Shown piece after piece: positions 26,300-27,658 of a DNA stretch of 64,000 nt. A program made the position numbers and the translations under genes. How positions within the stretch are numbered: position 1 is the first letter of the stretch; the number at the start of each line of letters is the position of its first letter. Source of the DNA: Escherichia coli. GTDB taxonomy: Bacteria; Pseudomonadota; Gammaproteobacteria; Enterobacterales; Enterobacteriaceae. The stretch lies in NCBI RefSeq assembly GCF_003790525.1, contig NZ_CP033635.1; one strand, 5' to 3'. The notes beneath the pieces were generated by a model that saw only the letters and a list, made by a program, of their open reading frames with translations, did no database searches and was not told the DNA's origin.

Positions 26300-27658
26300 T
26301 TACACTAATATAGTGGAAAAAAGGAAGCAGAAGATAGTTGAAGCCAGAACGGTAATCAGACCGGGTAACATATAACTGTGATTTACTACATACTTGCCAA
26401 CTCTGGTTGTTCCTGTTCTGTCAAACGCCACGCAAGCAATTTGTGCACCACCAGGAATAATGAATGATCCGCACGTTACCGGAAGCAAAGCTATGAGCGT
26501 CTCAGTCGAATATCCCATTAATACGCCAGCAGGAAATAATGCCACAGCAGTTGCTGCGGGACTGTAAATCACAGCAGAAAGAACAAACACAATCACACCG
26601 AATATAACTGGGTTATGAAAATCATTGAAAGTGTTATTAAATAAATCTTGCCATGCTTCAAAGAAAGAACTCATCATCCATGAAAGACCAAATATGGCAA
26701 CAACTCCAACCAGACCGGCCTTAAAAACGGATCCTGAGTCAAGTTTCGATGGAGAAATCCGACATACCATCATAATGATACATGCTGTAGTCAACATGAT
26801 GATTTGCAATGCTGTTGGAATACTCATCCGTTCTACACCGGCACTGGTATTCCATACCGGACGTAATTCTGGAACAGAGCCTAAAACAACAACCAAAATG
26901 ATCCCAGAAATAAAAATCATCAGGGCTTTCTTCGCTGTTTTAGATATAATACTGATTGTACGTTCCCCAGTTTTTACTGACTCAAATTCACCTTCTGCAA
27001 CTCTGCGTTGAAACTCTGGGTCCGTTTCAAGATCATGGCCCCGTTTATAAACAAACAAACAACCAACAAGACACCCCAAAATAGTTCCCGGTACAGTAAT
27101 CAATAAAATATCTAAAGCAGAAACATGTAATCCGGAAAAGACCGCAATCGTTCCTGTAACGACCGCACTTACTGGGCTCGCTATAAGACCAAAGTTGGCG
27201 GCAATGACTGACATTGACATGGCGCGTTCTGGCCTCACTCTTGCATCAGCTGCGATTTCAGCAATAACAGGATAAATGGAAAAAGCGACATAACCAGTTC
27301 CACATATTGCCGTAAAAAGATAAGCAACTGCTGGCCCAAGAAACGTGATTGCACCAGGCCTCTTTTGCAGTATTTTTTCAGCTATTGTCACGAAAAGATC
27401 AAGACCTCCCGCTGCCTGCAGGATAGCAATACATGTGATAACAGCAAGAATAATGGAAATGACAGTGATAGGCGGGGAATCAGGCGGGACTCCAAAACCA
27501 AAAGTCAGAATTGCGAGCCCTAATCCCCCGCCGCCCCTAAGCCGATTCCACCAAAGCGCCCACCTATCCCAATGCATGTAAGTACTATTGCAAACTGAAT
27601 TACGAATAACATCATAACCAATCCCTTTCGTCAACAAATAGCTTAATATCATGCACAT
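26300..27658 (-). CDS. DcuA/DcuB-family transporter paralog; authentic N-terminus lies in another frame (frameshift at a G run near 27530-27545)
   Basis: ORF body is Dcu-like; the alternative frame starting near 27612 encodes MMLFVIQFAIVLTCIGIGGRFGGIGLGAAG, the expected first TM helix. Confidence 0.7.
   Translation of the reverse strand: MCMILSYLLTKGIGYDVIRNSVCNSTYMHWDRWALWWNRLRGGGGLGLAILTFGFGVPPDSPPITVISIILAVITCIAILQAAGGLDLFVTIAEKILQKRPGAITFLGPAVAYLFTAICGTGYVAFSIYPVIAEIAADARVRPERAMSMSVIAANFGLIASPVSAVVTGTIAVFSGLHVSALDILLITVPGTILGCLVGCLFVYKRGHDLETDPEFQRRVAEGEFESVKTGERTISIISKTAKKALMIFISGIILVVVLGSVPELRPVWNTSAGVERMSIPTALQIIMLTTACIIMMVCRISPSKLDSGSVFKAGLVGVVAIFGLSWMMSSFFEAWQDLFNNTFNDFHNPVIFGVIVFVLSAVIYSPAATAVALFPAGVLMGYSTETLIALLPVTCGSFIIPGGAQIACVAFDRTGTTRVGKYVVNHSYMLPGLITVLASTIFCFLFSTILV

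Follow-up and report, generated by a model that had tools for sequence, protein, structure and literature searches.

An accessory gene of the Dcu family of anaerobic C4-dicarboxylate transporters, located in a 64,000-nucleotide stretch of an Escherichia coli contig (NZ_CP033635.1, RefSeq assembly GCF_003790525.1; the whole stretch that was analysed is termed the window), is split between two reading frames at a short homopolymeric run that has one G fewer than in its closest relatives. We consider it likely that the split gene represents a recurrent loss-of-function allele of a redundant accessory Dcu gene, generated by slippage during replication. The analysis shows the frameshift, the ancestral state of the run, the recurrence of the lesion and the loss of conserved helices; slippage as the mechanism, loss of function and relaxed selection are what we infer. 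As a lesion, this is a homopolymer frameshift pseudogene of the ordinary kind, and public databases already contain the allele.

Reading frames of the split gene

The ORF listing for the minus strand contains a long ORF of 452 aa (26300..27658), the leader of which (MCMILSYLLTKGIGYDVIRNSVCNSTYMHWDRWALWWNRLRGGGG) does not resemble a membrane segment and gives way to Dcu sequence at LGLAILTFGFG. With a mean Kyte-Doolittle hydropathy of -0.06 and 7 charged residues, the leader agrees with its description as non-membrane-like in the initial annotation. An overlapping ORF of 33 aa (27520..27621, minus strand), which translates to MVMMLFVIQFAIVLTCIGIGGRFGGIGLGAAGD followed by a stop codon, encodes the Dcu N-terminal helix with a hydropathy of +1.62; it terminates at TAG 27520-27522, as expected from the earlier observation that an overlapping frame carries this helix and then stops. 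The two frames meet at the G-rich run GGGGCGGCGGGGG, which ends in five Gs (G5; 27525-27529) and lies at 27525-27537 of the minus strand, a few bases away from the 27530-27545 initially given for it. Across this run the 0-frame reads TTA GGG GCG GCG GGG GAT TAG. Upon addition of one G to the terminal G5, the sequence becomes ...GCG GGG GGA TTA GGG CTC... and the two frames are joined into a protein of 438 aa starting at ATG 27615 (hereafter the repaired protein). This protein is the same as WP_000979091.1, and the proposal that a single inserted G would fuse the frames is thus confirmed. The parts of the gene, in window coordinates, are as follows.

27523..27615 (-): 5' segment, codons 1-31 (MMLFVIQFAIVLTCIGIGGRFGGIGLGAAGD), in frame A from the native ATG 27615
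27525..27529 (-): G5 homopolymer and site of the 1-bp deletion; CCCCC on the plus strand; G6 in SMS-3-5 and 702/18
27520..27522 (-): premature TAG closing the 31-codon N-terminal frame
26300..27523 (-): 3' segment, codons 32-438 and the stop codon (LGLAILTFGFG...STILV, then stop), in frame B
27616..27658 (-): spurious stretch by which the frame-B ORF extends upstream, with ATG 27658 and with TTG 27634, the start used by NCBI's PGAP annotation pipeline
27622..27628 (-): AAAGGGA, resembling a Shine-Dalgarno sequence, 6 nt before the native ATG 27615
27049..27063 (-): (GTTT)3 short tandem repeat, intact in the window; site of a 4-bp deletion frameshift in other strains

The native ATG 27615 is also the start codon assigned by PGAP to WP_000979091.1 in SMS-3-5, and the segment that follows it aligns with the N-terminus of the family. 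In the frame-B segment, the first in-frame start codon is a GTG at codon 76 (27391). Since the 31 out-of-frame codons are identical to the annotated protein and include 7 family-invariant glycines, the split frame is not a chance occurrence. Relative to the alleles of SMS-3-5 and 702/18, the gene carries a 1-bp deletion with a TAG after codon 31, which is the arrangement of a frameshifted pseudogene.

Alternatively, the long ORF of 444 or 452 aa could be a genuine transporter with a remodelled N-terminus: PGAP annotates a 444-aa CDS in the strain CLSC36 without a pseudogene flag (WP_225379506.1), and the product is found in NCBI and UniRef. The leader is, however, hydrophilic (-0.06 to -0.57, with 7 charged residues), it takes the place of helix 1 and half of helix 2, and it is merely an out-of-frame reading of the native N-terminus. 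A Shine-Dalgarno sequence was found neither before ATG 27658 nor before TTG 27634, which further argues against initiation of a remodelled protein. We therefore give this reading almost no credence, and the 'intact' 444-aa WP_225379506.1 is an annotation artefact of start-codon choice.

Genomic context and family membership

The locus belongs to an E. coli island of low GC content that is located at the cobU/asn-tRNA site. Four genes of the DcuA_DcuB family and a DcuC gene are present in the window, and the count of four Dcu paralogs made initially is borne out by the genes at 24868-26184 (+), 32258-33592 (-) and 61314-62612 (+) together with the broken gene. A module composed of a GntR/FCD regulator, two Dcu genes and an ArgH-like lyase is kept in Citrobacter. 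The search for a dcuS remnant upstream of dcuR found no ORF there. The relevant neighbours and paralogs in the window are listed below.

23421..24803 (+): ArgH-like lyase (Lyase_1 and ASL_C2 domains), part of the four-gene module
24868..26184 (+): convergent Dcu-family paralog next to the broken gene; intact, 438 aa, with 52% identity to it
27770..28426 (+): GntR/FCD regulator of the same module, divergently oriented
32258-33592 (-): DcuA_DcuB-family gene adjacent to aspA
61314-62612 (+): DcuA_DcuB-family gene

The repaired protein matches the Pfam profile DcuA_DcuB (PF03605) with 397 bits (cut-off 27) and an E-value of 1e-118 over positions 1-366 of the 368 in the profile, TIGR00770 with 410.1 bits (cut-off 331.35) and NF006927 with 442.9 bits (cut-off 369), and hence lies above the curated profile cut-offs for membership in the DcuA/DcuB family. 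The two NCBIfam subfamily models score nearly equally (442.9 versus 438.5 bits). The identity of the protein is 52% to the adjacent paralog and 32-33% to the window's DcuA/DcuB-like copies (32% for the aspA-adjacent copy at 32258-33592), and the neighbours of its gene are the ArgH-like lyase and the GntR regulator, not aspA, to which the gene for the L-aspartate/succinate antiporter DcuA is linked. The initial designation of the gene as a DcuA paralog stands with respect to the DcuA/DcuB family, but appears too specific with respect to DcuA. In its length of about 438 aa, glycine-rich N-terminal motif and multi-helix organization, the repaired protein resembles the E. coli DcuA/DcuB antiporters (PF03605, TIGR00770), from which it is set apart by the low identity to the DcuA/DcuB-like copies and the near-equal subfamily scores. 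By sequence, the broken gene appears to be a divergent DcuA/DcuB-family branch that is neither DcuA nor DcuB proper.

An alignment of 56 family members reveals that G18, G23, G25, G27, G30, G31 and G33 are invariant. As sequenced, the window does not contain this glycine-rich N-terminal motif in one continuous frame, and the motif becomes continuous only after addition of one G. The AlphaFold2 model of the repaired protein (pLDDT 87.3, pTM 0.87) contains about 20 helical elements, with helix 1 spanning residues 2-19 and helix 2 spanning residues 22-41, and the frameshift falls at residue 30/31. According to this model, the shift removes the predicted helix 1 and half of the predicted helix 2, the invariant glycines included; the initial statement that the first transmembrane helix lies in another frame is correct for helix 1, and the loss extends further, to half of helix 2. 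The helical elements and the Foldseek matches to elevator-type transporters indicate a polytopic helical membrane fold for the predicted model. In VcINDY/DASS, TRAP SiaQM, ArsB and AbgT YdaH/MtrF the fold is similar to the predicted one (Foldseek E-value of ~1e-5, TM-score of 0.5-0.63), whereas their sequences are only 12-17% identical to that of the repaired protein. Sequence searches of the PDB with the Dcu protein did not find a relative, and the family, in which 12 transmembrane helices are predicted for DcuB and about 13 for DcuA, is without an experimental structure (PMC10634366). Based on the conservation and the predicted structure, and with neither a Shine-Dalgarno sequence nor a start codon that would rescue the downstream frame, we infer that the function of the transporter is lost.

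Nearest relatives and the ancestral length of the G run

BLAST searches against 5,426 complete E. coli genomes detected the gene in about 177 of them. The window is 99.99% identical to SMS-3-5 and 702/18: it differs from SMS-3-5 by 2 SNPs and the missing base over 41.6 kb, and from 702/18, along all 64 kb, by 5 SNPs and 3 indels of one base each in homopolymers. Another species or a host-restricted symbiont, considered on account of the low GC content and the many Dcu copies, was rejected in view of this identity. On the plus strand, the missing base is seen as C5 versus C6 at 27530. The indel at 60240 and that in a first poly-C run (59234) occur in 702/18 alone, and the state of a second poly-C run at 59243 is common to the window and 702/18. 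The G-run deletion is the sole private indel of the window in 64 kb, in which there are 14 G/C runs of six or more bases. A generally noisy assembly, considered in view of the 3 indels relative to 702/18, was rejected because the window has no private indel other than the one in the G run.

The gene for WP_000979091.1, which is carried by SMS-3-5, 702/18, FDAARGOS_497 and about 145 other complete genomes, has the same DNA except for one G, the same genomic position and the same neighbours, and all 438 aa of its product are identical to the repaired translation. It has G6 where the window has G5, and in the window codons 1-31 and codons 32-438 consequently lie in different frames. A further candidate for the exact repaired protein, P0001, was rejected as it differs by G25C and is merely a cluster representative. 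With the run at its centre, a 101-bp query found matches in 174 complete genomes, among which CLSC36 alone was identical to it (G5), and all other individually inspected complete-genome records span 102 bases, which corresponds to G6; spans of 1602 bases, as opposed to the 1601 of G5, were likewise observed. By these sequence comparisons, G6 is the ancestral and intact state. The initial annotation had offered a pseudogene or a homopolymer error, reparable by a single G, as the explanation, and both parts of this proposal are supported, G6 being the intact state and G5 the state of the window.

The second of these explanations, namely an error of assembly or base calling in which a homopolymer was under-called and the strain truly has G6 and an intact gene, is the less likely one. 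Deletion of a single base from a G/C homopolymer in a G-rich context is a classic type of long-read error, and the closest relatives of the window all have G6. Furthermore, the 702/18 sequence, which is labelled 'complete', has private C-run shortenings at 59234 and 60235, and a visibly noisy assembly (L008) also has G5. The absence of any other private indel in the 64 kb of the window, despite its 14 G/C runs of six or more bases, argues against such an error, as does the distribution of the allele among other assemblies.

The G5 allele in other genomes and metagenomes

The 452-aa frameshift product is encoded on 19 public contigs. They include contigs of two NCBI genomes, of a MEGAHIT-style human-gut metagenome (ERZ920081), of another metagenome (ERZ28599788) and of three SRA runs assembled by Logan, where the short-read nature of the Logan/ENA sources is deduced from contig naming and size. 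All 8 G5 loci that were fetched display a 4-2-5 pattern of G runs, and their 3-kb flanks resolve into at least 3-4 SNP haplotypes, which also exist with G6. Haplotype A comprises the window and L007 and is identical to that of the G6 strains SMS-3-5 and 702/18; haplotype B (L006, L008 and CLSC36) is the commonest among the G6 complete genomes too; haplotype C (L005 and L009) has G5 in two unrelated metagenome projects; and haplotype D is represented by L011. The assembly containing L008 (GCA_052953255.1) is plainly indel-ridden and is to be discounted; as it shows, some of the G5 calls may be errors.

CLSC36 (O1:H42; WP_225379506.1) has G5 as well, and its DNA is 100% identical to that of the window over 1601 bp. 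It differs from the window in its flanking haplotype, with 239 mismatches over 29 kb, and in its gene order. In comparison with FDAARGOS_497, the G-run deletion is the sole private indel of CLSC36 in 29 kb. Judging from the flanking sequence, the G5 of CLSC36 probably arose independently of that in the window.

When JGI metagenome contigs were scanned without restriction on the length of the run, 7 loci with G6, none with G5 and 1 with G3 were recovered, which are too few for an estimate of frequency; the G3 variant is in frame and comes from a contig of 1.4x coverage. G5 is rare, at roughly 0.5% to a few per cent (~0.6%, or 1 of 174, among the complete genomes), yet recurrent. Literature searches on the island, on CLSC36 and on the Dcu genes of SMS-3-5 found nothing specific.

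Given that G5 occurs in such varied assemblies, an assembly error would require the same mistake to have been made independently on different platforms. The same allele is present in short-read-style metagenome and Logan assemblies, in the clean CLSC36 genome on another haplotype and, within haplotype C, in two unrelated metagenome projects. We thus regard an error in the window as unlikely, and the presence of the allele in other assemblies, together with the clean CLSC36 sequence, favours the G5 of the window as a real allele.

Origin of the run and other lesions in the gene and island

The G6 run arises from the codons GCG GGG GGA, which specify A29, G30 and G31. The corresponding codons are GCA GGC GGG in the Citrobacter ortholog, which is 85% identical, and GCC GGC GGG in an E. 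coli variant of 77% identity; GGA GGT GGG occupies the site of the run in the adjacent paralog. By this comparison of codons, the glycines are conserved but the homopolymer is not, and the run stems from synonymous codon choice.

These comparisons also bear on whether a full-length protein could be produced from G5 by recoding, either through programmed -1 frameshifting on G GGG G or through transcriptional slippage. The frame would indeed be restored if tRNA-Gly slipped by -1 on G_GGG_G, immediately ahead of the 0-frame stop. A programmed site would be expected to be conserved across homologs, but all other inspected complete genomes encode the protein in a single frame, orthologs are without the run, and a canonical X XXY YYZ heptamer is lacking. 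A G5 tract is also too short for efficient slippage by RNA polymerase. Recoding is accordingly a reading to which we attach a vanishingly small probability.

Several other, independent lesions affect the same gene. P0129 has a different N-terminal frameshift, in which GGTGGGCGC is changed to GGTGGCGC at codon 19 (G3 to G2) and G6 is intact. In P0126 (WP_242811576.1, 32 contigs) the (GTTT)3 repeat is contracted to (GTTT)2 near codon 189; of 148 records from complete genomes, 2 carry the (GTTT)2 allele, one of them MSB1_6C. The frame of P0024 shifts after residue 387, and in about 27 complete genomes a deletion has left no more than the 5' ~410 nt, adjoining a PTS gene. Similar decay is seen elsewhere in the island, where an IbrB-like gene has an internal stop and aspA is frameshifted in FDAARGOS_497. 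An inherited deletion of A8 to A7 divides the gene of a TonB-dependent receptor in the window; as in the Dcu gene, loss of 1 bp from a mononucleotide run has turned one gene into two ORFs. The entire SMS-3-5 clade has inherited the TonB lesion, whereas the window is the only member of this clade with the Dcu G5, which recurs elsewhere.

The recurrence of G5 on several haplotypes raises the alternative of a phase-variable switch, in which reversible toggling between G6 (ON) and G5 (OFF) would control the transporter. An in-frame G3 variant exists, and the tract, like those of classical contingency genes, is located near the start of the coding sequence. Contingency loci typically have tracts of 7-8 or more bases. 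The run considered here has just 6 bases and no counterpart in the adjacent paralog, the Citrobacter ortholog or the E. coli variant of 77% identity, and no G7 was found in any dataset examined. The two lengths are, moreover, very unequally represented in complete genomes, with G5 in ~0.6% (1/174) and G6 in ~99%. Thus, neither a long conserved tract nor common shorter and longer lengths, as would be expected of a contingency locus, are observed. The gene has also suffered irreversible lesions, such as the contraction by 4 bp and the large deletion, which argue for decay rather than regulated switching. We consider phase variation to be very improbable. A broader proposal is that the GGGGCGGCGGGGGG tract is an unusually active mutational switch that turns the transporter off, and possibly on, in extra-intestinal E. 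coli, its loss being favoured in particular niches (for example, the urinary tract or the gut under antibiotic treatment) and not a matter of neutral decay; this remains a long shot.

We favour, instead, recurrent loss of a base by replication slippage in a gene under relaxed selection. The rates of indels in E. coli climb exponentially with homopolymer length (PMC8510543), and one G was likely lost from the G6 run by slipped-strand mispairing during replication. Translation from the native ATG 27615 would then stop after 31 codons at TAG 27520-22, leaving the remaining 407 codons out of frame with no start before codon 76. No functional transporter would be made, and the result would be a loss-of-function pseudogene allele. 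The run would constitute a mutational weak spot that derives from codon choice. The gene, in turn, would be dispensable because of the 52% identical copy that adjoins it and the several other Dcu genes, and the adjacent paralog is the likely source of functional redundancy. With a weak spot in a dispensable gene, G5 and other disruptive alleles would keep arising and persisting in natural E. coli under weak selection.

Implications

The 452-aa ORF should not be taken for an intact transporter with a novel N-terminus, a misannotation of which RefSeq has an example in WP_225379506.1, and pseudogene calls that rely on ORF length alone miss early frameshifts of this type. The allele does not reveal a new mechanism, and its value lies in the corrected annotation and in the evidence of recurrent inactivation. 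In nature, the accessory Dcu gene in this aspartate/C4-dicarboxylate island has been inactivated by at least four kinds of lesion, and this repeated inactivation suggests that the accessory Dcu transporter is redundant or conditionally costly.

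Annotation and run-length variants of the accessory Dcu gene

In E. coli CLSC36, which carries a different flanking haplotype, the segment 20101-21435 of NZ_CP041300.1 is the counterpart of window 26300-27634. The G5 allele of the accessory Dcu gene, one G short of the intact G6 run, is called by the NCBI annotation pipeline (PGAP) in this genome as an intact protein of 444 aa with a TTG start (WP_225379506.1), of which residues 1-37 correspond to the native N-terminus read out of frame, and the CDS carries no pseudogene flag. A further run-length variant is seen in a human-gut metagenome contig (OWPN01011813.1, 531-577), where G3 replaces G6 with the loss of one glycine codon and retention of the frame; this variant may be an error, given that the coverage is only 1.4x.

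Other small lesions in the region

Two other genes of the window carry an indel or stop lesion.

Lesions in other genes of the window
17588-19761, + strand, TonB-dependent (haem-type) receptor; A8-to-A7 deletion at ~18495, resulting in two ORFs
20132-20776, - strand, IbrB-like gene; internal stop codon, in line with the annotation of SMS-3-5 and 702/18

The receptor lesion is common to the window and its nearest relatives, SMS-3-5 and 702/18, in both of which PGAP labels the gene 'frameshifted'; the gene is unbroken in CLSC36 and FDAARGOS_497, and the IbrB-like gene is unbroken in CLSC36. In the reference-grade genome FDAARGOS_497 (L029; loci 27550-28949 and 3937-4894), the island aspA is frameshifted by a C4-to-C3 change and cbl carries a 7-bp duplication, and these are additional small-indel pseudogenes from the same region.

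Separately, downstream of hypT, the length of a twin poly-C tract (window 59234-59248) differs between the closest relatives, being 7/6 in the window, 6/6 in 702/18, 7/7 in 23CRST013 and 7/CAC5 in FDAARGOS_497. The 7/6 combination of the window found no match among complete genomes.

Gene content and rearrangement of the island

Window 23400-64000 is an island located at the cobU/asn-tRNA site, adjoining pks (ClbP) island fragments, and holds a second aspartate/asparagine/C4-dicarboxylate gene set comprising ansB, a dcuA-like gene with aspA, pepT-dcuC, an isoaspartyl peptidase, and an Asp/Glu racemase with a Dcu gene. Within 28430-30130, the response regulator dcuR (29405-30130) is an orphan, lacking a dcuS partner; in the AT-rich 1 kb upstream of it (GC 0.36), ORFs do not exceed 57 aa.

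The two copies of aspA (33815-35198 and 62785-64000) are 99.3% identical and lie in inverted orientation. CLSC36 lacks window 35198-50183 and has window 50183-64000 inverted, an arrangement consistent with rearrangement between the two aspA copies.

The four-gene module outside E. coli

A module consisting of a GntR/FCD regulator, two Dcu genes and an ArgH-like lyase is retained in Citrobacter-like contigs (L026/L027, genes at 5200-10197), with 85% protein identity to that of E. coli. That two Dcu carriers occur together with an argininosuccinate-lyase homolog hints at a putative role for the module in the uptake of an N-substituted aspartate and its subsequent cleavage to give fumarate.
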